Shown piece after piece: positions 668-13,019 of a stretch of 14,972 nucleotides of DNA. The notes under the pieces were generated by a model. The model had not been told where the DNA came from. It saw only the letters and a list, made by a program, of their open reading frames with translations, and ran no database searches. The translations under genes were made by a program, and so were the position numbers. This stretch comes from a virus. The stretch lies in the UHGV virus genome UHGV-1739818; one strand, written 5' to 3'. How positions within the stretch are numbered: position 1 is the stretch's first letter; each line of letters starts with the position of its first letter.

Positions 668-693
668 GTAAGTAATTATCTAAGGTTATTCAA

Positions 694-2268
694 ATGGAAT
701 TGAACGACAAACAAATTAAGGATCTGGTGGCGCGACGCCACCCGGAATACGAAAAGAAAAAAGAACATTGGGACTTCCTCGCCAGCACTTACGCTGGCGG
801 GCGTGGTTGGTTTACAGACAATATCTTTCGTTACTTTAAAGAGGGAGATCAGGAGTTTAAGGAGCGAGTTGAACGTGCTTATCGCTTCAACCACACTCGT
901 GAGGTGGTAAACCTCATCAACAAATATCTCTTTAAAGAAGACATTCATAGAAATATCGAAGAGGCACCAGAGCAGATCCGCAATTTCTGGAAACGTGCGA
1001 CTCGCCAGAATGCCTCTATTGACTCATTTATGGCCGCTATTGATTTGCAGTCGTCTATTTACGGTCGCATATGGGTTGTTGTCGATAGCACGATGAGTGG
1101 TGATGTTGAGTCAGTAGCTGACGAGAAAAAGAAAGATGCTCGCGCCTACGCCTACTGGATTTCACCTCAGCAAATGCTGGATGTGGCATGGGACGACGAC
1201 GGGAATATGTTGTGGGCGTTAATTGTGGAAGTCGCTCGTGATGACGCAGATCCTTTTACTTCTACAGGTCAGGAATACCAACGTTATCGTCTGTGGACAC
1301 AAAACGAGTGGTATCTGTTCCGTGAGGAAGTGAAGAAGGGCGCTGGTGGAGCAGGTCGCCGTCAGGCAAAAGTTATTTTAGAGGATAGCGGTGAGCATAA
1401 TCTCGGCGTAGTTCCTGTGTTTCCTGTTGATTGTATTGGAGAAAGTGAATCACCGTATTTCAGCCCATCGTTGATCGATGATATCGCTTATCTTGATCGT
1501 GCGGTTGCAAACTATCTGTCAAACCTTGATGCCATTATTCAGGATCAGACATTTAGCCAGTTGGCTATACCGGTACAGTCGCTTTTACCTGGTGATGAAA
1601 ACCACACTAAAGTGCTTGAAATGGGCACAAAGCGAGTCTTCACCTACGATTCTGAAGGTGGAAACCAGCCGTTTTATCTGTCACCAGACCCGAAACAAGC
1701 TCAGATGATCATCACTACGATTAAGACGGTGATTAACGAAATCTACCATTCAGTTGGTGTAGCTGGTGAGCGAACGAAGCAGGACAACGCACAGGGAATC
1801 GATAATTCATCTGGTGCCGCAAAAATGTATGACTTCCAGCGTGTAAATAGCTTGCTTGTCACAAAAGCAGAGCGTCTGGAAAGGGCTGAACGCCAAATCA
1901 TGCTACTGGTTGCGAAATGGATGGGGGTAGATCTGGACGAAGACCACTCTTTAATTGCATATCCAGAAAGTTTCGATATTCGTGGCCTTACTGATGAATT
2001 TTCTGTTGCCGAGAAACTGTCATTACTTCAGGCACCGGACTCTGTACGTCGTCACCAGATGGAAATGCTTATTGAGAAGATTTTCCCGAACATTACTGAG
2101 GCGATGAAAAAGGAATTTGATAAAGATCTCTTGAATTTTCCTCCAAAAAATGATCTAAATACCCTTGAAAATAAGTCGGTACTTACTTATGATCGTGGTG
2201 CAGCCCAAGAAAGCGGGCAAGATCAACCCCGAGGGAATGGGGACTCATCTACTCAAGAGAACGAGTGA
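694..2268 (+). CDS. Portal protein
   Basis: 524-aa ORF directly after the terminase gene with AAGG 8 nt upstream of the ATG; size and position are typical of portals, and the C-terminal tail is acidic. Family not verified. Confidence 0.65.
   Translation: MELNDKQIKDLVARRHPEYEKKKEHWDFLASTYAGGRGWFTDNIFRYFKEGDQEFKERVERAYRFNHTREVVNLINKYLFKEDIHRNIEEAPEQIRNFWKRATRQNASIDSFMAAIDLQSSIYGRIWVVVDSTMSGDVESVADEKKKDARAYAYWISPQQMLDVAWDDDGNMLWALIVEVARDDADPFTSTGQEYQRYRLWTQNEWYLFREEVKKGAGGAGRRQAKVILEDSGEHNLGVVPVFPVDCIGESESPYFSPSLIDDIAYLDRAVANYLSNLDAIIQDQTFSQLAIPVQSLLPGDENHTKVLEMGTKRVFTYDSEGGNQPFYLSPDPKQAQMIITTIKTVINEIYHSVGVAGERTKQDNAQGIDNSSGAAKMYDFQRVNSLLVTKAERLERAERQIMLLVAKWMGVDLDEDHSLIAYPESFDIRGLTDEFSVAEKLSLLQAPDSVRRHQMEMLIEKIFPNITEAMKKEFDKDLLNFPPKNDLNTLENKSVLTYDRGAAQESGQDQPRGNGDSSTQENE
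2172..2185. repeat. Gapped dyad TAAGT-cggt-ACTTA embedded in the 3' end of the portal coding sequence
   Basis: Read directly from the sequence; same gapped dyad as at 7629-7642. Lies about 105 nt upstream of the scaffold start codon. Confidence 0.5.
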
Positions 2269-2289
2269 TAAGTAACAAAAGGAATTTTT

Positions 2290-3177
2290 ATGAATCTGTG
2301 GCAAATGCTTTTGGCCCGTCGTGGTCTGATGGATGTCGCTGAAGCGCATGAGCGTGGAGGCGCTGGCGGTGTAGCTGCTGATAATGAGCAGAGTACACAA
2401 GATCCTGACAAACAGGGTGAACAAAAAGAGCAGCCGAAGGGCGATGACGAATACGCTGGCATGACTCAGGAAGAGTTACTGGCCGAACTTCGTAAAACCA
2501 AGAAAGCTGGTGCTGAACTGCTGAAGGAGAACATGAAGCGCAAAGAGAAAGAGCGCACATTGGCCGATCAGCTTGCTCAGTACGGTGATATCGATCCGGC
2601 TCGTGCTCGCCAGCTTTTAGAAGCTGAACAGGCCGCAGAAAACGCACGTCGTGAGGCGGAGCAAGCTGAACTGGAGCGTCGTGGTGAGTTCGATGCTGTT
2701 AAAAAACAGATGATCGAAGCACACCAGGCAGAGCTGGCACAGCGTGACGAACGTTATGCAGCACTGGAAAGTGAAAACGCATCACTGAAATCTCAATTAG
2801 TCGAGATGACCGTGGGCGCTTCGTTCAGTAACTCTCTCTTCCTACGTGACAAAGTTCTGATGACCCCGGCAAAAGCCCGCGTGATCTACGGTTCTCATTT
2901 TGAAGTGGGTGAAGACGGTAGCGTAGTGGGTTATGACAAACCGGCAGGTCACAAAGAACGAGCTGTTCTGGTTGACGGTGAAGGTAAGCCGTTGCCGTTT
3001 GAATCCGCGATTGAACGCATTGTGCGGGCAGATCCGGAAGCTGACGCATTGATGCGTAGCGAAGCCAAGCAGGGTGTAGGCTCACATTCCAAATCGACCT
3101 ACACAATATCCCAACCGAAGAACAAGTCGACTATGGATAAGTTGGCCTCCGGTCTGGGGAAAATTGGACTTAAGTAA
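2290..3177 (+). CDS. Head scaffolding protein (putative)
   Basis: 295-aa ORF between portal and major capsid genes; highly charged, Ala/Glu/Arg/Gln-rich central segment predicted to be coiled coil (…AEQAAENARREAEQAELERRGEF…); SD AAAAGGA 6 nt upstream of the ATG. No protease motifs seen. Confidence 0.55.
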   Translation: MNLWQMLLARRGLMDVAEAHERGGAGGVAADNEQSTQDPDKQGEQKEQPKGDDEYAGMTQEELLAELRKTKKAGAELLKENMKRKEKERTLADQLAQYGDIDPARARQLLEAEQAAENARREAEQAELERRGEFDAVKKQMIEAHQAELAQRDERYAALESENASLKSQLVEMTVGASFSNSLFLRDKVLMTPAKARVIYGSHFEVGEDGSVVGYDKPAGHKERAVLVDGEGKPLPFESAIERIVRADPEADALMRSEAKQGVGSHSKSTYTISQPKNKSTMDKLASGLGKIGLK

Positions 3178-3202
3178 CATCTAAATCAAAGGGAATTGAT
3201 AG

Positions 3203-4078
3203 ATGCCATTACTGCGTGAAGAAGCTGAAAAGCTGTCTAACAACGAACTTGAACAGGGTGTGATCGAAACTATCATCGATCGCGATGACCTGTTTGCCAT
3301 CCTGCCTTTTATGAAAATTAATTCAAAGGCATATCTGTACAACCGTGAAAAAACGCTGAGTGAAGCTACCTTCATCGACGTTAACGACACCATCCCTGAA
3401 GGTGCAGCAACCTTCGAAGAATGCGTTGCGAAACTGCGTATTCTGGCTGGTGACGTAGACGTTGATAAATTCCTGGCGACCACTATGGCCGACACCAACA
3501 ACCAGTTGGCTATTCAGGTTCGTCAGAAAGTTAAAGGTCTGGCTCGTGCGTTCCGTCGCAACCTGATTTTGGGTGACTCCAGCTCCAACAACAAGGCGTT
3601 TGACGGCATTCCACGCCTGATGCACGCAGATCAGAAGATCGATATCGCCGGTGCATCTATGACTTTCTCTATGTTCGACGAACTGGTCGATGCGGTGAAA
3701 GATCTTGGTGCTGACTGCATCATGATGCGTTCAGAGCACCTGCGTGCTTACCGTGCGCTGCTGCGTACAGTAAACGTAGGTCCGTCTGAAATCATGATGG
3801 AGAACTTCGGTCGTCCGATGCTGTGTCATAACGGCGTTCCGTTCATCATCAACGACTTCATCCCGACCGATGCTGGCAAAGCAAGCATCTACTGCCTGCA
3901 TCTGTCAGAAGAGAACGGCGTTACTGGTCTGTATGGCGGCGACAACGCAGGTATCGTTGTTGAAAACATTGGTACTGTACAGAACAAAGACGCAGTACGT
4001 ACCCGTGTGAAGTGGTACTGCTCTCTGGCGAATAAGCACGATAAGGCTATCGCTGCACTGACCAATGTAAAAATTTAA
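3203..4078 (+). CDS. Major capsid protein (putative HK97-fold, no delta domain)
   Basis: 291-aa ORF after the scaffold gene with SD AAAGGGAA; strongly biased codon usage suggesting high expression; followed by an intrinsic terminator. Length fits a capsid protein that relies on a separate scaffold. Confidence 0.7.
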   Translation: MPLLREEAEKLSNNELEQGVIETIIDRDDLFAILPFMKINSKAYLYNREKTLSEATFIDVNDTIPEGAATFEECVAKLRILAGDVDVDKFLATTMADTNNQLAIQVRQKVKGLARAFRRNLILGDSSSNNKAFDGIPRLMHADQKIDIAGASMTFSMFDELVDAVKDLGADCIMMRSEHLRAYRALLRTVNVGPSEIMMENFGRPMLCHNGVPFIINDFIPTDAGKASIYCLHLSEENGVTGLYGGDNAGIVVENIGTVQNKDAVRTRVKWYCSLANKHDKAIAALTNVKI

Positions 4079-4087
4079 TCAGTGTGG

Positions 4088-4105
4088 TAGATAGGTAGTT
4101 ATCTA
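4088..4105. repeat. Inverted repeat TAGATA-N6-TATCTA between capsid stop and terminator
   Basis: tagata (4088-4093) is the reverse complement of tatcta (4100-4105). A related TTATCTA element occurs at 676-682 in the terminase-portal junction. Confidence 0.35.
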
Positions 4106-4114
4106 TGTTAAAGG

Positions 4115-4138
4115 GTGGGCTATACGCCCACTTTTTTT
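4115..4138 (+). terminator. Rho-independent terminator downstream of the major capsid gene
   Basis: GTGGGC (4115-4120), loop TATAC, GCCCAC (4126-4131), followed by T7 (4132-4138). Confidence 0.7.
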
Positions 4139-4151
4139 GGAGGAGCGAGAA

Positions 4152-5072
4152 ATGCCAGAACAAAAGATGAAGATTACGGAAGAGACATTTTCGGATTTTA
4201 CGGGGCATATGTGCCGTGCCGGATTTACCAATTCTATCTCCGATGAACCTTTAACCGAGCGGCAACAAAGTCAGCTATCTGCTTGTTTGCAGGCGGTTCC
4301 CCTCTCCCAATCCGTAAACATAACCCCGGCTTCACCGTCAGTTTTGGTTGGGAAAACTGTTCAACTTAGTGCAGGTATTAGTATGGGTAAGAGTGCCAGT
4401 TCATTCACCTGGAAGTCAGCCAATGACCAAATTGCAACCGTTAACGGCACTGGATTAGTAACTGGCGTAGCACCAGGCAAAGTAAAAATTACTGCAACTG
4501 ATCAGGAAACCCAGCTTTCCGCTTCAGTGGAAGTCACCGTAAATCCGGTAGCCGTTCAATCCGTAACGGTAACGCCAGAATCAACGTCTGTTGAGAAAGG
4601 GAAATCAGTCAGTCTGAAAGCGAATGTTCAGCCGTCAAATGCGACGAATAAGGCTGTTGCCTGGTCTTCCAAAAATGAAGATAAGGCAACGGTAGACCAG
4701 AGCGGGAACGTTACTGGTGTAGAAGTTGGCACTGCGACGATTGAGATCGTTTCCCAAGATGGCAGCAAAAAGGGAACTGCAACGGTGGAAGTAACTGCGC
4801 CTGTTGTGGCTGTTACCGGCGTCGAAATCGACCCAAATAGCACAACCGTTGAGGCAAACAAAACTGTTCAGCTGACCGCAAATGTCGAGCCGGCAGGAGC
4901 AACAAATAAAACCGTTACTTGGGAATCCAAAAATACCGAATTTGCAACGGTGGATAGCGAAACCGGTGTTGTAACTGGCGTTGCGGCTGGTACTGCCACA
5001 ATCGAGGTTACTACCCAAGATGGTAGCCACAAAGCGACAGCGACCGTAGAAGTCACTGCTGCACAGGAATAA
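4152..5072 (+). CDS. Protein with at least three tandem Big_2 (bacterial Ig-like) domains; candidate capsid decoration or virion surface protein
   Basis: ATG at 4152 with GGAGGAG 7 nt upstream (the track start at 4137 is a TTG lying in the terminator T-tract). Repeated segments of type …TATVDQSGNVTGVEVGTATIEIVSQDGSKKGTATVEVTA… are characteristic of Big_2 domains. Confidence 0.7.
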   Translation: MPEQKMKITEETFSDFTGHMCRAGFTNSISDEPLTERQQSQLSACLQAVPLSQSVNITPASPSVLVGKTVQLSAGISMGKSASSFTWKSANDQIATVNGTGLVTGVAPGKVKITATDQETQLSASVEVTVNPVAVQSVTVTPESTSVEKGKSVSLKANVQPSNATNKAVAWSSKNEDKATVDQSGNVTGVEVGTATIEIVSQDGSKKGTATVEVTAPVVAVTGVEIDPNSTTVEANKTVQLTANVEPAGATNKTVTWESKNTEFATVDSETGVVTGVAAGTATIEVTTQDGSHKATATVEVTAAQE

Positions 5073-5080
5073 TCAATATT

Positions 5081-5098
5081 GGGCGGCGAAAGCCGCCC
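5081..5098 (+). other. Stable GNRA-tetraloop hairpin without a U-tract
   Basis: GGGCGGC-GAAA-GCCGCCC, a perfect 7-bp GC stem, 9 nt after the Big_2 gene stop. Followed by ATGTAGAG rather than a T-run, so not a canonical terminator. Confidence 0.4.
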
Positions 5099-5116
5099 AT
5101 GTAGAGAGAATGCGTT

Positions 5117-5551
5117 ATGAAACCAGCAAAAATTGTTTTATTAGAACCGCAATTTTCCGGTTATTCGGGAATGTTGTGCGGCGTTCAGTTCGAGAACGGG
5201 GTGTCCGTAGCGGAGTTGCCTTTTATCGATCAGCAAAGGATTTGTGCCTCAATGCGAGCATCAACAGTCGAGGGCAAAAATGTTTCTCCGTCTGCCGCAT
5301 ACAGTGATCGTGGCGAGTTGACCGCAGACCTGATTACCGAGCCAGCAGCACCTGACATTGTGCCAATGAAACGTGGGACACCAGATGAACCGGCCAAACA
5401 GATCCAGACTTTCACACGAGAAGAGTTGGAGTCAATTGCAGACAATGAAGGCATTGCCGGTCTACGTGTGATTGGTAATCAGGTTGGTGTCAAAGCGAAA
5501 GGAATTGTCGAGATGATTGAAGGCATCCTGAAAGCACAAGGCGGTGAGTAA
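5117..5551 (+). CDS. Hypothetical protein (144 aa)
   Basis: ORF whose stop overlaps the next start (TAATG at 5549-5553), indicating translational coupling; purine-rich stretch upstream. C-terminal 40 aa loosely resemble a helix-extended-helix motif (low confidence). Confidence 0.5.
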   Translation: MKPAKIVLLEPQFSGYSGMLCGVQFENGVSVAELPFIDQQRICASMRASTVEGKNVSPSAAYSDRGELTADLITEPAAPDIVPMKRGTPDEPAKQIQTFTREELESIADNEGIAGLRVIGNQVGVKAKGIVEMIEGILKAQGGE

Positions 5552-6384
5552 TGGCGCAGATCGACTCGTATCGTAGCGGTGAAGCTGTTTCCCTTTCATT
5601 TGCCTTCAACGTGCTGGATATCGAATCTGCTACCTACACAGTAAAGGACAGCACCGGGGCTATTCTCGTTGATGGCGAGCCGCTAGAAATTACCAGCGGT
5701 CAAATGTCGATTCCGGTTGTCGTGTCGGCTGAATATAACCAGCTCTCTGAGAAAGAACGCGATCTGCGGTACGTCATTGTGAAGGCTGTTGCATCGGGTC
5801 TGACGCATGAAGAGCGGCAAATGTATGTTCTGCTGAATAGTTTTGAACTGTCGATACCAGAACAGTCGTTTGCAACTGTCGCTGATGCTCAAATGCAGGC
5901 GATCGATATGCTGAATGGGGACACTTTGCTGTCGGATGGTGAAGGCTTAATGCGCAAGCGTCTCATTGAGGCTACCAGACGAATTAAAACTTTACCGTTC
6001 TCAATCCGCAAAATTCTACGTATCGACTTTGACCGATACGATCGCCCTCAAAATATGCTGAATGTGTATGACATTCCGTGGGGAGCAGATGGAGCGTACC
6101 GGCATGATTTAGTCGATTGGGAAAAGATGACGCAGGAGAAGTTTGAAGAGTTCCCTGACTACTTCAAAGAAGCGTTGATGCTTGCCGTTGTCAACGAAGC
6201 GTGTGAGATCGCAAATGGCAATGATGTTGCCGCAGCACGAGAGGATGGCATTTTGTCAGAATCCATCGGTGAAACAACCAACATGTACCGTACCGGTAAA
6301 GCTGCAAACGTGCATGTGGCTCGTAGTACCTGGCGCTTGCTGGTCAGTTACATCAACAACCGTATGATTGTTCGCCGTGCGTAA
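5551..6384 (+). CDS. Hypothetical structural protein (277 aa); head-completion or connector candidate by position
   Basis: Translationally coupled to the upstream ORF; lies between the capsid module and the adaptor/neck genes. No family recognised by eye. Confidence 0.55.
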   Translation: MAQIDSYRSGEAVSLSFAFNVLDIESATYTVKDSTGAILVDGEPLEITSGQMSIPVVVSAEYNQLSEKERDLRYVIVKAVASGLTHEERQMYVLLNSFELSIPEQSFATVADAQMQAIDMLNGDTLLSDGEGLMRKRLIEATRRIKTLPFSIRKILRIDFDRYDRPQNMLNVYDIPWGADGAYRHDLVDWEKMTQEKFEEFPDYFKEALMLAVVNEACEIANGNDVAAAREDGILSESIGETTNMYRTGKAANVHVARSTWRLLVSYINNRMIVRRA

Positions 6385-6463
6385 CGCCAGTCGCATTATT
6401 TACTTTTGGTCGAAAGGGTTTTTGGCCAGTAATGAGAGCGACCGACAACAACAGAGAGAGAGC

Positions 6464-6770
6464 ATGAATATTTCGTGGCAAACAGAAATTGCGATCTACC
6501 GCTTTGGCGCAAAGAACGTTTACGGCGAGGCGCAATTACAATTCGTCAGGAAGACGAATGTCGGCGTGGTTAAGTTCGAACAGAGTAATGAGAAATCGTC
6601 AGTTCGTGCTGATAGATGCTGTGTTAGTTGTCCCTTTAGAAGCGGCTGTACAACTTGATGATGTGCTGATCCTTGAAGGTCAAAAATTAAAGGTGTCCAG
6701 TGTTCATCGCCGTTGGGGGCTACGAGGAAGACCTGGGCATCTTGAAGTGGGGGCGAATATATGGGTCTGA
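6464..6770 (+). CDS. Head-tail adaptor (head closure) protein, apparently interrupted by a +1 frame change near 6596-6602
   Basis: Frame 2 from ATG 6464 gives MNISWQTEIAIYRFGAKNVYGEAQLQFVRKTNVGVVKFEQSNEKS and then implausible Cys-rich text to the stop at 6658. Frame 0 is implausible upstream but protein-like from about 6600 (QFVLIDAVLVVPLEAAVQLDDVLILEGQKLKVSSVHRRWGLRGRPGHLEVGANIWV) to the stop at 6770. The conceptual fusion is about 100 aa with features typical of small adaptor proteins. Confidence 0.45.
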
Positions 6771-7234
6771 AATACGATGCGCATCAGTTCAAACGTGCGG
6801 GGAATAGACTCAATAACAGCCAGAAAGCATTTAAGCGATATCTTATTCGGGACATGGAAAAGCTGGCGCGTTTGGTTGAGCGTCTCAGCCGTGCAATGGC
6901 CCCGCTGGAAACCGGATCTCTGGAGACAGCCATCTTTGCCAGGGTGATTAAAGAAGGTTATTCAGGGCTGCGCATTGAGCTTTCTGTGTCTGGAGCAAAA
7001 CCACGTCAGGGGCATCCGGGCGTAGAAGTCGGTGACTATGCTAAGTACATGGAGCTGGGTAAATACCGACTCGGTTATCTTTCTCGAATGAAGAACGTGA
7101 CAAACCCACCAATTGCCGGTGTTAAACCTCGTGTTGGGCCACACTTTCTGGAAAGAGCGGTGGAAATTAGCGAGAAGCAGTTCTCAGAAGCGATTCTTGA
7201 GGCTGCAAGAAAAGCCGGTTTTACGAGAGGTTAA
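6761..7234 (+). CDS. Neck/tail-completion protein, HK97 gp10-like (putative)
   Basis: 157-aa ORF with a G-rich SD; contains a YAKYMELG segment resembling the conserved YA.y.E.G of the HK97 gp10 family; in the lambda gpZ position. Confidence 0.55.
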   Translation: MGLKYDAHQFKRAGNRLNNSQKAFKRYLIRDMEKLARLVERLSRAMAPLETGSLETAIFARVIKEGYSGLRIELSVSGAKPRQGHPGVEVGDYAKYMELGKYRLGYLSRMKNVTNPPIAGVKPRVGPHFLERAVEISEKQFSEAILEAARKAGFTRG

Positions 7235-7235
7235 T

Positions 7236-7619
7236 GTGTTTATCGAAGCGTTTGCAAGTTTGATGCAGAAGGCAAAGATTGGCACGGTCGGGACTGACAT
7301 TTTCTGTCACTACTTGCCTGCCAATGTGAAATCTGGCGTCCTGCTTATTAACCCAAATACCGGTATCAGCATCGATCATGAGCTACAGGGCTTTTACCAC
7401 GAATCATTCACAATAATTGTGCGTGGTTCGTCAATTACTACGACGGTTGAGAAAGCCAATAAAATCATTGAGATGTTTCCAGTAGAGGAAACGGAATCTG
7501 GTGGTGTTTATTTTCGACTGGTACGACCGATGGCGATGCCAATCATTTATCCCAAAAATGATGGAGCATTAATAGAAGCAGGCATTCCTGTTGAATTTGC
7601 TGGCTATTTATTGAATTAA
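7236..7619 (+). CDS. Tail terminator / tail completion protein (putative, lambda gpU position)
   Basis: Start placed at GTG 7236, which overlaps the upstream stop (TAATGTG) and has GAGAGG 5 nt upstream. The track start at 7113 would overlap the previous gene by about 120 nt in another frame. Confidence 0.45.
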   Translation: MFIEAFASLMQKAKIGTVGTDIFCHYLPANVKSGVLLINPNTGISIDHELQGFYHESFTIIVRGSSITTTVEKANKIIEMFPVEETESGGVYFRLVRPMAMPIIYPKNDGALIEAGIPVEFAGYLLN

Positions 7620-7640
7620 GTCAATCGGTAAGTATATACT
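7611..7640 (+). promoter_or_regulatory. Candidate sigma70-like promoter upstream of the major tail gene
   Basis: TTGAAT (7611-7616), then TATATA (7633-7638, spacer 16) or TATACT (7635-7640, spacer 18). The -10 region lies inside the 16-bp palindrome. Confidence 0.3.
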
Positions 7641-7643
7641 TAC
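7628..7643. repeat. Perfect 16-bp palindrome GTAAGTATATACTTAC (TAAGT-N4-ACTTA core)
   Basis: Read directly; 50 nt upstream of the major tail start codon. Candidate operator for a dimeric DNA-binding protein. Confidence 0.6.
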
Positions 7644-7693
7644 TGTTAGCGCAATGAATGCGTAGAATTAACGGAAAAAGGAGTTTTCCATCA

Positions 7694-8440
7694 ATGTCTA
7701 ATACCCATGTAAAAAACATCAAACTTGGTGCCTGTAAGGTGTCGTTTGGTGGTGTGGATTTGGGTTACACCAAAGGTGGTGTTCAGGTTGAAGTAGCCAC
7801 TGAAACGCTGAAAGTCACTGTCGACCAGCACGGCCAGACAATTATGTCAGAGCTGGTGCAGGGTCGTAACATTACCATTACTGCGCCGCTGGCCGAGTCT
7901 GTGTTGAAAAATATGGTCGATCTGATGCCGGGGTCTACTCTGAACGAAGACGACAACGCTGTGACCATCACTTCCGCACAGGGTGTCAACCTGATCGACG
8001 TAGCCAAAGAGCTGGTTCTGACTCCGCAGGACACTACCGACTACGTTCTGACCATTCCGAAAGCTGCGACCGCAGGTAACTTCACCATGACTTACCAGTC
8101 TGATGATGTTCGTGTGTTCTCTGTTCAGTTCAGCGCATACCCTGATGACGAAGGCGTTCTGGGAAGAATGAGCGGCCCTAAACCGGTAAAAACCGTGTCG
8201 ATCAAACCGGAATCTCCAACTGTAAAAGCAGGGGAGACTGTGCAACTGACAGCCGAAATCACTCCAGCTGATGCCGCAGACAAAACCGGTGTTTGGGAAT
8301 CCGAAGACCAGGAAAAGGCCACGGTAGATCAAACGGGTCTGGTACGTGGTGTGGCGCAGGGTTCTACAAATATCTCCTTCACCAGCAATAGCGGTGGTAA
8401 GAAGGCTACTAAGTCAGTAACGATTAACTCCGCAGGTTAA
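7694..8440 (+). CDS. Major tail (tube) protein with C-terminal Big_2 Ig-like domain
   Basis: ATG 7694 with AAGGAG 10 nt upstream (the track start at 7658 lacks an SD). C-terminal about 90 aa is a Big_2-type domain (…VQLTAEITPADAADKTGVWESEDQEKATVDQTGLVRGVAQGSTNISFT…), as in lambda gpV. Located before the G/GT pair. Confidence 0.7.
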   Translation: MSNTHVKNIKLGACKVSFGGVDLGYTKGGVQVEVATETLKVTVDQHGQTIMSELVQGRNITITAPLAESVLKNMVDLMPGSTLNEDDNAVTITSAQGVNLIDVAKELVLTPQDTTDYVLTIPKAATAGNFTMTYQSDDVRVFSVQFSAYPDDEGVLGRMSGPKPVKTVSIKPESPTVKAGETVQLTAEITPADAADKTGVWESEDQEKATVDQTGLVRGVAQGSTNISFTSNSGGKKATKSVTINSAG

Positions 8441-8453
8441 TCAGTAATTAAGC

Positions 8454-8479
8454 AGAGGCTCAGGATGGGCCTCTCTTTT
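8454..8479 (+). terminator. Candidate weak intrinsic terminator after the major tail gene
   Basis: AGAGGC (8454-8459), 9-nt loop, GCCTCT (8469-8474), then CTTTT. Short U-tract, so possibly partial. Confidence 0.35.
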
Positions 8480-8495
8480 AAAAGGATTTTAACCA

Positions 8496-8813
8496 ATGAC
8501 CAAATTACTCGATCTCGATTCCATTCTGCCTCCGAAGAAAAGCATCAAATTTGGCGGTCAGGAATATCCCATCGTTGAAATGACGGTAGGTCTGTTCGTT
8601 TCCATCAAGCAGATGGAAGGCAAAGATCTCATGAACATGTCTCCTGTTGAGCAAGTGACAGCTTATGCAGATCTGGTTCGTAAGGTTATCCCTTCAGTAC
8701 CTGACGAAGTTCTTGAAAAACTGACTGTTCCGCAACTCCAGCAGATCTTCACCTTCGCTATGGAAGTGATTGATGAAGAAAACGAAAAAGCGGCTGGCGA
8801 AGGGGCAAAGTAA
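8496..8813 (+). CDS. Tail assembly chaperone (lambda gpG-like)
   Basis: 105-aa acidic-C-terminus ORF immediately upstream of the tape measure gene, with AAGGA 9 nt upstream; its 3' end overlaps a -1 frame ORF. Confidence 0.7.
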   Translation: MTKLLDLDSILPPKKSIKFGGQEYPIVEMTVGLFVSIKQMEGKDLMNMSPVEQVTAYADLVRKVIPSVPDEVLEKLTVPQLQQIFTFAMEVIDEENEKAAGEGAK

Positions 8814-9163
8814 TTTCCCGCGATGAATCCGGGACAAGGACCGTCTCAATAGATCTCGGATTCTATTTCAGTCGTGTAGTTGCTCACTACGCCGTGTCGC
8901 CATTAGAGCTACTGAACGTTCCTCTCACGATGTTCTGGATGCTCAGTCGCAATATAGACCGTCTGCGTGCGGAAGAGGATGTCCGCAACTTACAAGTCGC
9001 TCGTGCGTCCCAGGCGGATGGCGAGGCTGTGAAGGCGTTCATGGAGGGTTTGCAACTCAGGATTGGAAGACCAGTCGTAACAGATAAAGTCTACGATCCA
9101 AGCCAGGATAAGGCAGACCCTGACGCCAAAGAGCAACTGATGCAAATATTTGGCAGAGGATGA
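8777..9163 (+). CDS. T-domain reading frame of a G-T tail assembly chaperone fusion, expressed by -1 programmed frameshift from 8496..8813
   Basis: The -1 frame is open from 8777 (after TGA at 8774-8776) to 9163 and overlaps the last 37 nt of the G-like ORF. There is no SD before its first internal start (GTG 8894). Its stop overlaps the tape measure start region. Confidence 0.6.
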   Translation, partial: RKRKSGWRRGKVISRDESGTRTVSIDLGFYFSRVVAHYAVSPLELLNVPLTMFWMLSRNIDRLRAEEDVRNLQVARASQADGEAVKAFMEGLQLRIGRPVVTDKVYDPSQDKADPDAKEQLMQIFGRG

Positions 9164-9170
9164 CAAGGGA

Positions 9171-10856
9171 ATGTCACAAAACGTAGAGTTTATCCTGTCG
9201 CTGGAAGACAAACAGTTTACAGCGTCAATCGATCGTGCGGGGAAACTGCTTACTCGATTTGGTGAGCAGGTAACAAAGCCTGCTCAAAAAATCCAAACCT
9301 TTGAACGCTCTTTGGGTTCGGTCGCCCGTATCATTGGCGTTCTGGAAAGCAAGCTCGATTCTACGGCAGATAAACTACAGGATGTAGCTGCCGGTTTTGA
9401 GCTTGCTTCAGATGCTACGCGTAAAATGCGTGGCAACATCACCAGCCTCAATTCTGGTCTTAAAGCCCTGATTGAGCGCGTCGATACGACAACTTCTTCA
9501 GTAGATAAACTCACCGCGTCATTACGTAAAGTGCAATCAGAGCTAAATGATTTCTCTGATTGGGCGACCTATGCAAGCAAAAGCGCAAGCCGCTTTGGTA
9601 CGGAGGTCAAAGAAGCCTCTGCGTCCGTGAGTGGCATGAATACGCGCCTTAATACCACGACGAAGCGACTCAGTAATTGGGGTGTCACAACGAGTCAGGC
9701 TGCCGAGGGACTGAAAAAGGTTCGTGAGCAGATGGACGAAGTTATCGGACGTCAGCAACTGATTAGCAAGCCGGTACGCGTTCGTACATCTGGAAGTGGC
9801 GATGGTGGTAGCGGGCGGCGTAGCGGCGCTTCTGGCCATAGCGGTAAAAGTAACGAAGGAGGTATGTTCTCTGGCCTTCGTGGCAACATTTTCCTGCTTG
9901 GCGAGATCGGAGATGCAGCCAGAACGGTTACTGACATCATGTTTGGGTGGCAGAAGCCTATTGTTGAAGCTGCGGCCGAAATGGAACGTATGCGGGTGAT
10001 GCTTCGAGGGTTGAATAAGGAGAAGTCCAACCCGGGCCAGGCTGCCGCTGATGATATGAAGTACATCGTAGACATGGCGCAAAATGCGCCGTTCGCGATG
10101 CAGGCGTTAACAGATTCCTTCGTGAAGTTTCGTTCTGCTGGCTTAGATCCAACCGATGGTTCTCTGAAGGCGCTGGTGGACTCCGTTGCTCGTTTTGGTG
10201 GTGATAGTGAGCTGTTGAAACGTGCGGCTGTGGCCGTTCAGCAGATGTCCGGTAAGGGCGTTGTGTCAATGGAAGAGCTACGTCAGCAATTAGGTGAAGC
10301 CGTTCCTAACGCGATGCAGGCAATGGCAGACGCCGCAGGCATCACTATGGGGGAACTGACTAAAGCCGTTGCCAGCGGTACGGTTGAGGCAAAACAGGCG
10401 TTGTCTCTGATGTTTGTTGGTCTGCGTGCGGAGAATGAGAACGCAGCGAAAGACATGATGCAAACCTACACAGGTGCGCTGGCGCAACTTCAGACGTCAT
10501 TCACGTTATTTGCTGATCGGGTTGGTCAGGCCGGATATCTGGATTCTCTATCGAAGGGGATGAAAGAACTGGCTTCAATCATGAATAGCGCCGAAGGGAT
10601 TTCGTTTGCCAATTCTTTAGGCTCGGGGTTAACGACGGCAATCGATGGGTTGCGTCAGCTTGCTCAATGGTTAGCAAAGAACCAAGAGCTGGTAATTAAT
10701 CTCGGTAAGGTCGTGGCCGCGATGGTTGCGTTCAAACTGATGCGAGCAGGGATCATGGGGGTAGTTGGCGCAGGCAGCCAGATGGTTAGCACCTTTGCCA
10801 CGATGGCGACCGCCATACAGACTCCATTTAACCTCGGCGCTACAGCAGTAAGATGA
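9171..10856 (+). CDS. Tail tape measure protein, N-terminal/major segment
   Basis: ATG 9171 with GAGGA 10 nt upstream (the track start at 9150 is a TTG without SD). Coiled-coil N-terminus, Gly/Ser-rich linker, and a region typical of tape-measure core domains (…NAPFAMQALTDSFVKFRSAGLDPTDG…); hydrophobic C-terminal segment. Confidence 0.8.
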   Translation: MSQNVEFILSLEDKQFTASIDRAGKLLTRFGEQVTKPAQKIQTFERSLGSVARIIGVLESKLDSTADKLQDVAAGFELASDATRKMRGNITSLNSGLKALIERVDTTTSSVDKLTASLRKVQSELNDFSDWATYASKSASRFGTEVKEASASVSGMNTRLNTTTKRLSNWGVTTSQAAEGLKKVREQMDEVIGRQQLISKPVRVRTSGSGDGGSGRRSGASGHSGKSNEGGMFSGLRGNIFLLGEIGDAARTVTDIMFGWQKPIVEAAAEMERMRVMLRGLNKEKSNPGQAAADDMKYIVDMAQNAPFAMQALTDSFVKFRSAGLDPTDGSLKALVDSVARFGGDSELLKRAAVAVQQMSGKGVVSMEELRQQLGEAVPNAMQAMADAAGITMGELTKAVASGTVEAKQALSLMFVGLRAENENAAKDMMQTYTGALAQLQTSFTLFADRVGQAGYLDSLSKGMKELASIMNSAEGISFANSLGSGLTTAIDGLRQLAQWLAKNQELVINLGKVVAAMVAFKLMRAGIMGVVGAGSQMVSTFATMATAIQTPFNLGATAVR

Positions 10857-11860
10857 GCTTCTCCAGCCTATCTCAGTCCATTTTGAAAGATATCACCAAT
10901 ATGGTCGTGAAGTCGCAAATCACGCTGCCTCTAATGAACATGTTGGGGATGGGAACCACCGCAGCTGGTAGTTCACAGAGTGGCAATTTGCTCACTGGAG
11001 TTGCTTCCGCCGTTGCCAATCAAGGGGTACGAATGGGCAACACTGTTAACGGCGACAAGTCGGTGGGAGAAGCCACGAAGGAGACGTCCAGTTCGGTAAC
11101 TGGATTGGGGCAAACAACACAGCAGACCACCAGCGCAATTGGCACTGCAACAAATGCGATTGGTAGCTGGGTATCAGGGCTATTTGATAGCACCGAAGCC
11201 AAAGATGCTGAAACAAAAGCAGTGAAGGACTCCATCTTCTCGATGCAGAACCTCAGCTCTGTTACCGGCGCTCTGTCTGCCGCGTTTGCAATGCTTGGAG
11301 CTAATGCTTCCGGCTCTGGTAATAAGTGGTTGAATTTCGGCGCGACAGTTGCATCTGGTTTGGTTTCAGTATGGGCTGGTGGTGGATTCGATGGATTGAT
11401 GTCCGGTTCTTCTGGCTCAACTTCCGGGTTCAACAATCTGACCAGTTCTGCTGCCGATGGCACGAATGGTATTCCTGCAATTCCGAAGTTTGCAAATGGT
11501 GGCATATTCGGAAAAGACGGCGTGATCCCGCTCCGGGCATACCAGAAAGGCGGTATCGCCAACTCACCTCAATTGGCGTTGTTTGGGGAAGGCGATATGA
11601 ATGAGGCGTATGTTCCATTGCCTGATGGTCGAACAATCCCTGTAACGCTCAGTACCGATGGTATGAGTGGAGGAGGAAATGTTCTTTCTCCGGTATCAAT
11701 TGAGATCAACGTCCATAGTGACGGTAGCACAACTGAATCCGGCGATACAGAAAGCATATGGAACAATGCCGCTCAACGGATGAAAGCAATCGCGCTTGAG
11801 ACTATCGCTCAAGAGAAACGCCCTGGCGGATCACTCAACCCAAACACTCAACGTAACTAA
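10853..11860 (+). CDS. Tape measure protein, C-terminal segment, encoded as a separate ORF in the -1 frame
   Basis: Starts at ATG 10853 overlapping the upstream stop (ATGA). Gly/Ser/Thr-rich with a FANGGIFGKDGVIPL…GEGDMNEAYVPLPDGRTIPV block resembling conserved tape-measure C-terminal motifs. Confidence 0.65.
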   Translation: MSFSSLSQSILKDITNMVVKSQITLPLMNMLGMGTTAAGSSQSGNLLTGVASAVANQGVRMGNTVNGDKSVGEATKETSSSVTGLGQTTQQTTSAIGTATNAIGSWVSGLFDSTEAKDAETKAVKDSIFSMQNLSSVTGALSAAFAMLGANASGSGNKWLNFGATVASGLVSVWAGGGFDGLMSGSSGSTSGFNNLTSSAADGTNGIPAIPKFANGGIFGKDGVIPLRAYQKGGIANSPQLALFGEGDMNEAYVPLPDGRTIPVTLSTDGMSGGGNVLSPVSIEINVHSDGSTTESGDTESIWNNAAQRMKAIALETIAQEKRPGGSLNPNTQRN

Positions 11861-11865
11861 CTATC

Positions 11866-11887
11866 GACTGCCCCGACCGGGGCAGTC
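11866..11887 (+). other. GC-rich hairpin after the tape measure stop (9-bp stem, no U-tract)
   Basis: GACTGCCCC (11866-11874), loop GACC, GGGGCAGTC (11879-11887). Followed by TCACAAGG rather than a T-run. Confidence 0.45.
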
Positions 11888-11902
11888 TCACAAGGATGTG
11901 AG
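11887..11902 (+). promoter_or_regulatory. Hairpin presenting the Shine-Dalgarno of the gpM-like gene in its loop
   Basis: CTCACA (11887-11892), loop AGGA (11893-11896), TGTGAG (11897-11902), then ATG at 11903. Confidence 0.35.
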
Positions 11903-12238
11903 ATGGAAAGACAAACGTTTAATTGGTATCCAGATTACGAATCTGAAAAAAGCGTAAAACCGAATGTAACGGTACTTAATTTTGGTGATGACTACGAGCA
12001 GCGACAGGCTCAAGGTCTTAATCGTATTAAAGAAGAATGGTCGTTAACCTTTACCAGATCATACAACGAAATTAATGCAATCGATGACTTCCTGACTGAG
12101 CGAGCAGGCGTTGAGTCGTTCTATTGGGTTAATCCAAGAGGAAAACGGATTGTAGTTGTATGTGACAGTCATACGGTCAAGCGATATCAGGGGTACTGTG
12201 TCTTAACAGCTACATTCAGACAAGTATTTGAGGCTTAA
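11903..12238 (+). CDS. Minor tail protein, lambda gpM homologue
   Basis: 111 aa; pattern F.W…V.V..FGD.Y.QR…GLN……F…FL.E..G…F.W.NP…V.C……F.QV matches lambda gpM as I recall it; position immediately after the tape measure. Confidence 0.8.
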   Translation: MERQTFNWYPDYESEKSVKPNVTVLNFGDDYEQRQAQGLNRIKEEWSLTFTRSYNEINAIDDFLTERAGVESFYWVNPRGKRIVVVCDSHTVKRYQGYCVLTATFRQVFEA

Positions 12239-12275
12239 GTATCTGGATAAGTAAGTACTAATTTACTATCATTGT

Positions 12276-12298
12276 GGCGCTGACAGGATGTTAGCGCC
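12276..12298 (+). other. Hairpin in the M-L intergenic spacer
   Basis: GGCGCT (12276-12281), 11-nt loop, AGCGCC (12293-12298), followed by TACTTATTTC. Confidence 0.3.
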
Positions 12299-12320
12299 TA
12301 CTTATTTCAAGGATGAAACA

Positions 12321-13019
12321 ATGGGAATTAAAGCTGATATTCAGAGCTTATCTCCCTCTGCACTCATTGAGTTGTTCGTACTGGATATGTCGAACACAAC
12401 TTCAGGGGGGAAGCTATTCTTCCACGCCGGAACAAACGAACTGATGCAACCGGTCGTCTGGCAAGGAGTGACATACGAGCCGTGGCCAATCAAAGCATCA
12501 GGCTTTGACAAAACTGGCCAGGGAACGTTGCCACGTCCAAAAATTCAGGTATCGAACTTTGCCGGAACTGTCTCTGCGGAAGTTCAGGCAAACGACGATC
12601 TTGTTGGCTGCCGCATTATTCGCAAGATGACGCTGGCTCGCTTCCTCGATGCCGTTAATTTTAAAGACGGCAACCCAACAGCAGATCCAAACCAACATTT
12701 CCCGGATGAAATGTGGTTTATCGAACAGAAAACTCTCGAAACTCATCAGGTTGTCGAGTTTGAATTGTCCAGTGTGTTCGATTTGATGGGGGTGCAACTG
12801 CCGTATCGTCAGATCATTAAAAACACCTGCCCGTGGAAATACCGAGGGCCAGAATGCGGCTATACCGGTCCATATTTCGACAAAAATAACCAGCAGACGT
12901 CTATGTCTGGTGCTGATTACTGCACAAAACGTTATGACGCCTGTAATGCGCGTCGGAATTATTTTGCCAACGGAGTGATCCATTTTGGCGGGTTTATTGG
13001 AGCTACGCGATATGGGTAA
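12321..13019 (+). CDS. Minor tail protein, lambda gpL homologue (tail tip, Fe-S cysteine motif)
   Basis: ATG 12321 with AAGGA 7 nt upstream (the track start at 12288 adds 11 poorly supported residues). Blocks VVWQGVTYEPWPIKASGFDKTGQGTLPRPKIQVSNF, RFLDAVNF.DGNP.ADPNQ and CPWKYRGPECGYTGP…C…C match lambda gpL as I recall it. Confidence 0.85.
   Translation: MGIKADIQSLSPSALIELFVLDMSNTTSGGKLFFHAGTNELMQPVVWQGVTYEPWPIKASGFDKTGQGTLPRPKIQVSNFAGTVSAEVQANDDLVGCRIIRKMTLARFLDAVNFKDGNPTADPNQHFPDEMWFIEQKTLETHQVVEFELSSVFDLMGVQLPYRQIIKNTCPWKYRGPECGYTGPYFDKNNQQTSMSGADYCTKRYDACNARRNYFANGVIHFGGFIGATRYG

Follow-up and report, generated by a model that had tools for sequence, protein, structure and literature searches.

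The DNA analysed here, hereafter the window, is a 14,972-nt stretch of the virus genome UHGV-1739818, and the hexamer TAAGTA that recurs at its gene junctions is the left arm of a palindrome of 14-24 bp, present in some 30 copies per SSU5-type phage-plasmid. The window is the structural module of such an SSU5-like phage-plasmid. Its identity is 97.6% with Escherichia phage Cyrano, which E. coli LF82 carries as an SSU5-like phage-plasmid, and about 82% with Salmonella phage SSU5. All of its genes are on the + strand: the end of the large terminase gene, then those for portal, scaffold, major capsid and head-tail proteins, followed by major tail, chaperone, tape-measure and tail-tip genes. The palindrome most likely serves as the binding site of a phage regulator through which the viral genes are turned on or off together. 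We tentatively read these palindromes as a dispersed operator network comparable to mycobacteriophage stoperators or to the C1 operators of P1, a reading that we favor while placing it somewhat short of an even chance. Whole-genome comparisons were made with Cyrano, SSU5 (NC_018843) and Klebsiella phage pJN2-26, and positions were also set against relatives from Cronobacter (a plasmid; portal identity, 80%), Morganella (69%), Massilia (55%) and Paraburkholderia (53%); an Acinetobacter plasmid was surveyed only outside its structural module.

An exact scan of both strands of the window finds 13 copies of TAAGTA, against 3.42 +/- 1.84 expected (0 of 200 shuffles got to 13). The spacers sum to 566 nt, making the "about 500 bp" of an earlier note on this DNA a fair figure, and they contain seven complete copies, compared with 0.47 +/- 0.70 in composition-matched spacer shuffles, none of which reached seven in 5,000 trials. 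The positions that the earlier note had listed by eye are all exact except for the first, which lies at 669-674 rather than 670-675, and its caution that the manual scan might be incomplete was justified, with two reverse-strand copies overlooked (2184-2189, and 7637-7642, the partner arm of 7629-7634). The GGTA...TTATCTA string that it saw as common to two junctions is real, at 667-682 and 4093-4105.

The complete genomes of relatives generate the same pattern. In Cyrano, TAAGTA/TACTTA is the top spacer-enriched hexamer, with 44 intergenic and 25 coding copies (73 in total, of which 69 were scored and 4 straddle gene ends), so that intergenic DNA, which makes up 13% of the genome, holds 44/69 scored copies. 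The coding rate would predict 3.75 intergenic copies, and dinucleotide spacer shuffles give 12.3 +/- 3.3 (maximum 23, n = 500). TAAGTA also ranks first among spacer-enriched hexamers in SSU5 (42 intergenic versus 15 coding) and in Klebsiella pJN2-26 (51 versus 22). The intergenic enrichment suspected in the earlier note is thus borne out by exact counts, by shuffles and by the whole Cyrano genome, and it survives correction for AT content; the exhaustive k-mer count over a complete related genome, a check that could have gone against it, favored the observation. Furthermore, 17 of the 44 intergenic Cyrano copies are on the reverse strand, and the forward copies are mostly located 10-170 nt beyond a stop codon.

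When all non-coding copies are aligned on TAAGTA, T-A-C-Y-T-A appears at +8 to +13, revealing a dyad, TAAGTA-NN-TACTTA, of which good copies extend to GATAGGTAAGTAnnTACTTACCTATC and the common feature is a TA step each 4 nt. We observe 14 dyads with no more than one mismatch in Cyrano and 20 in SSU5 (0.4 expected in each), as well as (TANN)4TA arrays numbering 12 in Cyrano, 11 in SSU5, 18 in Klebsiella and 11 in the Cronobacter plasmid (0.03-0.37 expected), with no such array in 42 kb of P1. The Cyrano dyads form 28 clusters, and the motif has more than 20 copies, mainly in short intergenic spaces. The enteric sites are dyad-symmetric, with directionality in the flanks only. No conserved signal is found beyond about -5 to +17 of the 14-mer, indicating that the dyad is a self-contained site. 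Because the unit had been defined as a hexamer half-site, the earlier note scored the copies at 2269 and 3171 as signal and 2180-2189 as background.

The positions of the dyads are strongly conserved. Where a Cyrano gene has an upstream dyad, its orthologue also has one in 22/24 cases in SSU5 and in 18/19 cases in Klebsiella; where it has none, the orthologue has one in only 4/60 and 2/62 cases, respectively (with versus without, Fisher P < 1e-13). The genes preceded by dyads also include nrdA, thyX, dam, gp32-like ssb, uvsY, sbcD and cobS, showing that the sites are not confined to late operons. The 18-mer TAGGTAAGTACTTACCTA has 31 exact matches in 2.9 million IMG/VR contigs, all of them SSU5-like. 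More distant lineages carry dispersed palindromes with a different word: TAGGTAG-N4-CTACCTA in the Cronobacter plasmid, TAGGTA-N6-TACCTA in Morganella, AGTCAAAACTGACT in Paraburkholderia (8 identical copies in 21 kb), AGTCAnnnnTGACT in Massilia and AGTCAGTACTGACT in the Acinetobacter plasmid (7 perfect copies in 50 kb). Four places have a local palindrome in most or all of the five lineages whose structural modules align with the window: the terL/portal junction, the region after the capsid gene (where a terminator comes next), the region ahead of the major tail gene, and the parB-like operon promoter. A lineage-specific word at comparable kinds of junction is what a co-evolving protein/site pair should produce.

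Many dyads are associated with promoter-like hexamers, all of the promoters being predictions. A generic sigma70 scan of the window yields six + strand promoter-like matches, three of which coincide with dyads (2165-2193, 7611-7640 and 12244-12272). The placement of the dyad varies, being within the promoter spacer, over the -10, or just past the -10 and covering the expected start. At the parB-like operon, the predicted start is covered in six lineages (Cyrano, SSU5, Klebsiella, Cronobacter, Morganella and Paraburkholderia), and Cyrano and Klebsiella show the same arrangement at their XRE repressor promoter, TTTACA-16-TAATAT-c-GGTAAGCACTTACC. Several dyads in Paraburkholderia and Massilia abut a consensus -35 (TGACTgTTGACA-17-TAnnnT). 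A fixed promoter architecture was considered and dismissed, as the hexamer offsets vary and nothing outside the self-contained site is conserved. Such variable placement over otherwise adequate promoters is operator-like. The suggestion in the earlier note of a phage-specific promoter signal therefore stands in so far as this is a transcription-control signal tied to promoters, and falls in so far as the hexamer was taken as the unit.

Strand tests on 83 dyad clusters from three genomes indicate that selection acts on DNA rather than on RNA. The more stable fold is on the + strand in 37 clusters and on the - strand in 45 (Wilcoxon P = 0.89), and mismatched arm positions show no excess of G.U-type pairs on the + strand (81, versus 96 of A.C type). 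The imperfect copies thus have no strand bias, which argues for selection on double-stranded DNA and points to recognition by a protein. The dyad arms hold their sequence from site to site without covariation. The GC hairpins downstream of dyads (e.g., 7649-7663 and 12276-12298 in the window) instead keep their pairing as their sequence changes among Cyrano, SSU5 and Klebsiella; before the major tail gene, the covarying arms are GCGCA..TGCGT, GGCACC..GGTGCT and GTGTC..GACAC. No Rfam match was found. Together with the strand-symmetry tests, this led us to reject an RNA structure, and the earlier note's option of a processing signal is unsupported on the same grounds.

Within the window we distinguish five members of the dyad family, D1 to D5. 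D1 (665-682), at the terL/portal junction, reads TAGGTAAGTAATTATCTA; it is a degenerate copy in which TA recurs at 4-nt intervals, and it overlaps the TAG that ends terL at 665-667. SSU5 and the Klebsiella, Cronobacter, Morganella, Paraburkholderia and Massilia relatives each have the palindrome of their own lineage at this junction. D2 (2165-2193, + strand) lies within the portal gene near its 3' end, with the scaffold gene about 95 nt further downstream; its dyad, TAAGTCGGTACTTACTTA at 2172-2189, occupies the spacer of a sigma70-like TTGAAA (2165-2170) -17- TATGAT (2188-2193) with a promoter score of 10/12. D2 is conserved in Cyrano, SSU5 and Klebsiella, and its Morganella equivalent, again inside the portal gene, has the local dyad form TAGGTATGTAAATACCTA within an intact TTGATA-17-TATGAT. 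D3 (4088-4105), past the major capsid gene, reads TAGATAGGTAGTTATCTA and belongs to the family without containing any TAAGTA; it is followed by an intrinsic terminator-like hairpin (4113-4129) and a T-run, and Klebsiella, Cronobacter/L011, Paraburkholderia and Massilia likewise have a dyad and then a terminator behind their capsid gene.

D4 (7611-7663, + strand), ahead of the major tail gene, has the perfect dyad TAAGTATATACTTA at 7629-7642, extended to GGTAAGTATATACTTAC at 7627-7643. Its center is the -10 of a promoter-like TTGAAT (7611-7616) -18- TATACT (7635-7640), and its hairpin at 7649-7663 starts about 8 nt past the -10; dyad and geometry are kept in SSU5 and Klebsiella. D5 (12236-12304, + strand) lies in the tail M/L spacer and consists of a half-copy at 12236-12241 and the dyad TAAGTAAGTACTAATTTA at 12248-12265, which occupies the spacer of a promoter-like TGGATA (12244-12249) -17- TATCAT (12267-12272), followed downstream by the hairpin at 12276-12298 and a TACTTA at 12299-12304. 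The Klebsiella orthologue of D5 is a palindrome of 11+2+11 bp, ATAGATAAGTAagTACTTATCTAT. The remaining TAAGTA copies have no partner arm. The lone copy at 2269-2274 (+ strand), right after the portal stop (TGA TAA GTA A), mismatches the dyad in its right half, is missing at that junction in Cronobacter and Morganella and is probably an incidental tandem-stop context; the copy at 3171-3176 (+ strand), across the final scaffold codons and the stop, where SSU5 and Klebsiella read CAAGTAA, is probably incidental too. Neither is conserved beyond the closest relatives. The isolated coding copies at 7042-7047 (+ strand) and at 11973-11978 (- strand, in gene M) are background.

On the operator reading, the dyad would be bound by a phage-encoded dimeric DNA-binding regulator at about 30 operators across roughly 108 kb, placed on or beside internal sigma70-type promoters and at junctions within lytic operons. 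The bound regulator would occlude promoters and stop read-through, and the one-directional lytic block would be kept silent while the element persists as a plasmid prophage. The dyad itself, its enrichment, the conservation of its positions, its lineage variants, its role at the level of DNA and its overlap with promoter-like elements are observed; that a protein binds it, which protein this is and whether it represses or activates are features that we infer. The first-choice candidate binder is the XRE repressor encoded beside the integrase (CYRAN_45 in Cyrano), whose helix-turn-helix is conserved in three lineages and which has a dyad at its own promoter. Published LF82 transcriptomes agree with the operator reading: the XRE repressor is expressed in the lysogen (PMC9928086), and in the same data no gene reported above background lies directly behind a dyad except the XRE repressor gene and CYRAN_81, the latter downstream of a weak copy of the dyad with three mismatches.

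CYRAN_119 and CYRAN_123, both products of the parB-like operon, are alternative candidate binders. CYRAN_119 (L003 25144-25824), whose gene comes first in the operon running into the terminase genes, contains a ParB_N domain in which GGEHRWRAA forms an arginine patch. It matches structures of Spo0J, ParB and Noc, and its gene is present in every relative, SSU5 included. No ParB-type helix-turn-helix was recognized past its N-terminal domain, and its C-terminal 60 amino acids have no Pfam match. We also observe that CYRAN_119 and its orthologues consist of ParB_N, an acidic linker and a conserved C-terminal beta-strand plus two helices (HQTMRFKVTF...AGEALVWL), a C-terminal part that, by eye only, resembles a ribbon-helix-helix. 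CYRAN_123, of 88 amino acids and directly before terS, gives weak winged-helix signals. A conserved FljA-like protein (PF03614) is encoded as well and is a further candidate. Pfam, PHROG and PDB sequence searches with the XRE repressor, the FljA-like protein, the two ParB_N proteins, CYRAN_123 and TerS returned domain names and no link to the motif. Cross-lineage alignment does not single out one of them, since the ParB-like, CYRAN_123 and XRE proteins all diverge in step with phylogeny.

Several observations weigh against the operator reading. The XRE repressors of Cyrano and Klebsiella are only 56% identical even though the motif is the same, with conservation in the helix-turn-helix region. 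SSU5 has no homologue of the Cyrano integrase, of the XRE repressor or of the adjacent gene 46, and yet this phage without the integrase/XRE module has its 20 good dyads. Phage D29 offers a parallel for stoperators (PMC5712189), but such retention is equally expected if the sites serve lytic growth; SSU5 is consistent with a lytic deletion derivative of a temperate phage-plasmid. The Cronobacter repressor promoter has only a half-site. Finally, a -10-like TAnnnT is flush with the downstream arm at 25 of 81 enteric sites and its mirror image is flush with the upstream arm at 10, and in Acinetobacter the corresponding counts are 5 versus 0 of 7, with four sites reading ACTGACTATACT; this directionality suits a promoter element.

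Such a promoter element is the possibility that we regard as next in line, if a rather doubtful one: the dyad would be a P1-late-type positive element that replaces the -35, about 18-22 bp upstream of the start and immediately ahead of a -10 hexamer, at which a phage-encoded activator brings host RNA polymerase to some 30 promoters of the middle and late classes. P1 late promoters, in the annotation of NC_005856, read AAGT(G/T)ACTT, 4 nt, TAnnnT, and the SSU5-like core has the same AAGT/ACTT half-sites, with AAGTACTT in Klebsiella. In addition, -10-like TATCAT, TATGAT, TACTAT and TATACT start where the downstream arm ends, much more frequently than on the mirror side, -35 regions near dyads are often poor, dyads precede nearly every lytic operon, SSU5 retains all sites in spite of having no repressor, and several genes are common to P1 and the SSU5-like family according to annotations. 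The P1 activator Lpa, however, has no homologue detectable by tblastn or phmmer, and PHROG scans of the candidate proteins were negative. Its profile hidden Markov model (PF25716) gives a best E value of 0.18, versus 1e-80 for the P1 control, in 6,128 open reading frame segments from seven SSU5-like sequences (four genomes and three partial loci), and hhalign of Lpa versus the CYRAN_123 family gives a probability of 0.03%. Furthermore, the distance from the dyad to the -10 is not fixed (5.5 to 13.5 nt), several dyads are in promoters that already have a good -35 and -10 or are over the start site, several others are 9-25 nt before the next start codon, leaving no room for a leader, and dyads are also found ahead of nucleotide-metabolism and replication genes. 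That the protein with the ParB N-terminal domain loads or nucleates on the dyads, in the manner of KorB at OB or of Noc at its binding sites, for long-range silencing, genome organization or partition, seems to us unlikely. The dyad over the predicted start of this protein's operon in six lineages, each with its own version of the motif, the ParB_N domain with its arginine patch in every relative, and a site density of about 1 per 3.6 kb, near that of KorB (12 sites on 60 kb), would all fit. Against this, CYRAN_119 has no recognizable ParB-type helix-turn-helix, a separate pair of ParA and a small partner elsewhere is the likelier partition system, and overlap with promoter hexamers is unexpected for pure partition sites. 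A particular form of this idea, in which the palindromes would not be classical operators but period-4 TA arrays that load the conserved CTPase-type ParB-N protein at the head of the packaging operon, and a KorB-like sliding clamp would silence or organize the 100-kb genome from about 30 entries with lineage-specific site/protein pairs, is likewise a long shot.

Function at the RNA level, as an intercistronic hairpin for processing, stabilization, termination or translational control, strikes us as improbable. The sites do lie in transcribed spacers, many can form stems of 5-9 bp with 4-nt loops, and the encoded FljA-like protein is conserved, FljA being an mRNA-binding repressor. These points are set against folding energies and G.U versus A.C counts that do not favor the + strand and the lack of an Rfam family, against the conservation of sequence, and not of pairing alone, over about 30 sites next to GC hairpins that do covary and so display the mark of RNA-level selection within those spacers, and against stems that are weak, AT-rich and without a U-tract; at the parB and repressor promoters, moreover, the predicted start is inside the left arm, so that the hairpin would not be transcribed whole. 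We consider it very improbable that a selfish or neutral repeat, of REP (repetitive extragenic palindromic) or MITE (miniature inverted-repeat transposable element) type, has simply spread through the spacers. Many near-identical spacer copies just past stops, and the eight identical copies of Paraburkholderia in one orientation, spacer included, are what such spread would leave behind, but the sites occupy orthologous positions across genomes of about 80% nucleotide identity and across lineages in which the motif has changed, one copy is maintained within coding sequence with promoter hexamers around it, and the annotations contain no RAYT (REP-associated tyrosine transposase) or IS200-type gene. 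We give least credence of all to a stop-codon context with multi-frame stops (TAG-G-TAA-G-TAA) or to chance in AT-rich spacers. Overlap of a left arm with a stop is frequent, TAGGTAAGTAA puts a stop in each of the three frames, and the copies at 2269 and 3171 fit this account. The enrichment nevertheless withstands composition-matched shuffles, right arms provide stops on the non-coding strand only, most copies are away from stops, and the Burkholderiales and Acinetobacter versions are not stop-rich. Stop context or chance was accordingly rejected as contradicted by the spacer-only shuffles and the reverse-strand arms, and the stop-context preference raised in the earlier note is further argued against by in-gene copies and copies far from stops that all belong to one family.

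The kind of system to which the operator reading assigns the dyads, dispersed operator or promoter boxes in large temperate phages, is known. L5 has 24 stoperators, mostly in spacers, whose consensus varies among relatives and which are retained in the repressor-less D29 (PMC5712189). Cluster A mycobacteriophage stoperators (L5/Bxb1 gp71) are present, like the SSU5-type dyads, in 20-35 copies of a 13-14 bp motif in short spacers, often touching stops or starts (PMC5712189, PMC9283540). Both systems have a copy at an important promoter, a predicted one in the case of the dyads, and a consensus that changes from a phage to its relatives, and in both the sites outlast loss of the repressor, in D29 for stoperators and in SSU5 for dyads (PMC5712189). 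Stoperators are different from the SSU5-type dyad in being asymmetric, bound by a monomer and strictly oriented with transcription; their hosts, phage lineage and proteins are unrelated to the candidates here, and for the dyad both binding and a roadblock are proposals. The C1 operators of P1 offer a similar setting, with a plasmid prophage of about 100 kb, many transcription units and operators scattered at individual promoters (annotation), but they are asymmetric 17-mers of unrelated sequence, and no C1 homologue was found for the SSU5-like family. The Lpa boxes of P1 resemble the dyads as AAGT/ACTT inverted repeats just upstream of a -10-like hexamer before many phage-plasmid operons. A P1 box (AAGTnACTT) is 9 bp long and centered near -22 with a fixed 4-nt gap, and there are 11 copies in late operons only, whereas the SSU5-family dyad is 14-24 bp long with a spacing of N0, N2, N4 or N6, is present in about 30 copies, precedes early-type genes too and has no Lpa homologue to go with it.

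The OB sites of KorB, from the IncP plasmid RK2, are dispersed palindromes at, near or far from promoters, and the regulator heads an operon with its own site. OB and Noc sites, which are dispersed palindromes of 13-16 bp, share with the dyads an encoded protein of the ParB family and a site at the promoter of the regulator's operon; they differ in that their sequence is unrelated and in the ParB-type helix-turn-helix, which is not recognizable in the SSU5-type candidate. The CIRs of the Streptomyces phage phiC31 are palindromic repressor sites of the 17 bp class, at many loci near promoters and terminators; they are similar to the dyads in being palindromic and in occupying many loci of a temperate phage genome, with an unrelated phage, repressor family and motif. 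The present version has period-4 TA palindromes, positions that are conserved while the words change, and no homologue of P1 Lpa or C1; as far as we could find, it is undescribed. In the papers on SSU5, pHCM2 and Cyrano that could be searched, we found no account of the motif or of the control of lytic genes. SSU5-type phage-plasmids are often found in Klebsiella, E. coli, Enterobacter, Salmonella and Yersinia, the XRE repressor is present in 865 PLSDB plasmids, and published papers report that phage-plasmids of this type carry resistance genes. The motif is a direct map of their transcription units and offers a way to the master regulator through DNA pull-down or DNA affinity purification sequencing (DAP-seq). 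Since it differs between lineages, it is also a sequence marker of regulatory or immunity type, and the lineage variants at conserved positions can be read as an experiment of nature on how a protein and its DNA site evolve together.

The eight copies of AGTCAAAACTGACT in Paraburkholderia (L014 2247, 3770, 7799, 9843, 12536, 13569, 16842 and 17424) all share an asymmetric AAAC spacer and a single orientation relative to genes, a uniformity that indicates either a directional function or a very recent spread. Cyrano has a second dispersed palindrome, AAACAAnTTGTTT, with 12 perfect copies (e.g., at 29259, 32080, 58595, 80549, 81278, 93114, 93165 and 96286), two of them upstream of terS. Unlike that of the TAAGTA dyad, its geometry is fixed, 13-14 nt past a GATAAT-type -10 and 24-50 nt ahead of start codons; it is absent from the window and probably marks a separate class of promoter or regulator. 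Cyrano also has three long AT-cored hairpins whose arms are CTGCTTCTGTATATA / TATACAGAAGCAG (31150-31210, 78075-78135 and 108335-108379), one of them at the end of the linear record, adjoining the packaging genes.

With respect to the rest of the window, the loop CAGGATG of the M/L hairpin is invariant in Cyrano, SSU5 and Klebsiella and includes the ATG annotated as the start of gene L in Cyrano; the SSU5 and Klebsiella records start gene L at a later ATG, corresponding to window position 12321. Compared with Cyrano, about 38 nt of the head-closure gene are missing at 6608-6615, resulting in overlapping out-of-frame open reading frames (ORFs) at 6368-6658 and 6489-6770, and 1,886 nt of the tape-measure gene, not a multiple of 3, are missing at 10850-10851, resulting in ORFs at 9150-10856 and 10853-11860; these gaps may mean that the element is defective or that the source assembly is faulty. 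The region 8771-8900 looks like a tail-chaperone layout of the G/GT type, in which the -1 frame is open from about 8775, past the stop of the ORF at 8496-8813, into the ORF at 8894-9163, with a GAAAAAG run at 8784-8790 and a hairpin TCCCG...CGGGA at 8816-8834. Terminator-like GC hairpins are located after the capsid gene (4113-4136), after the gene for an immunoglobulin (Ig)-like decoration protein (5080-5099), after the major tail gene (8454-8479) and after the tape-measure gene (11866-11887).

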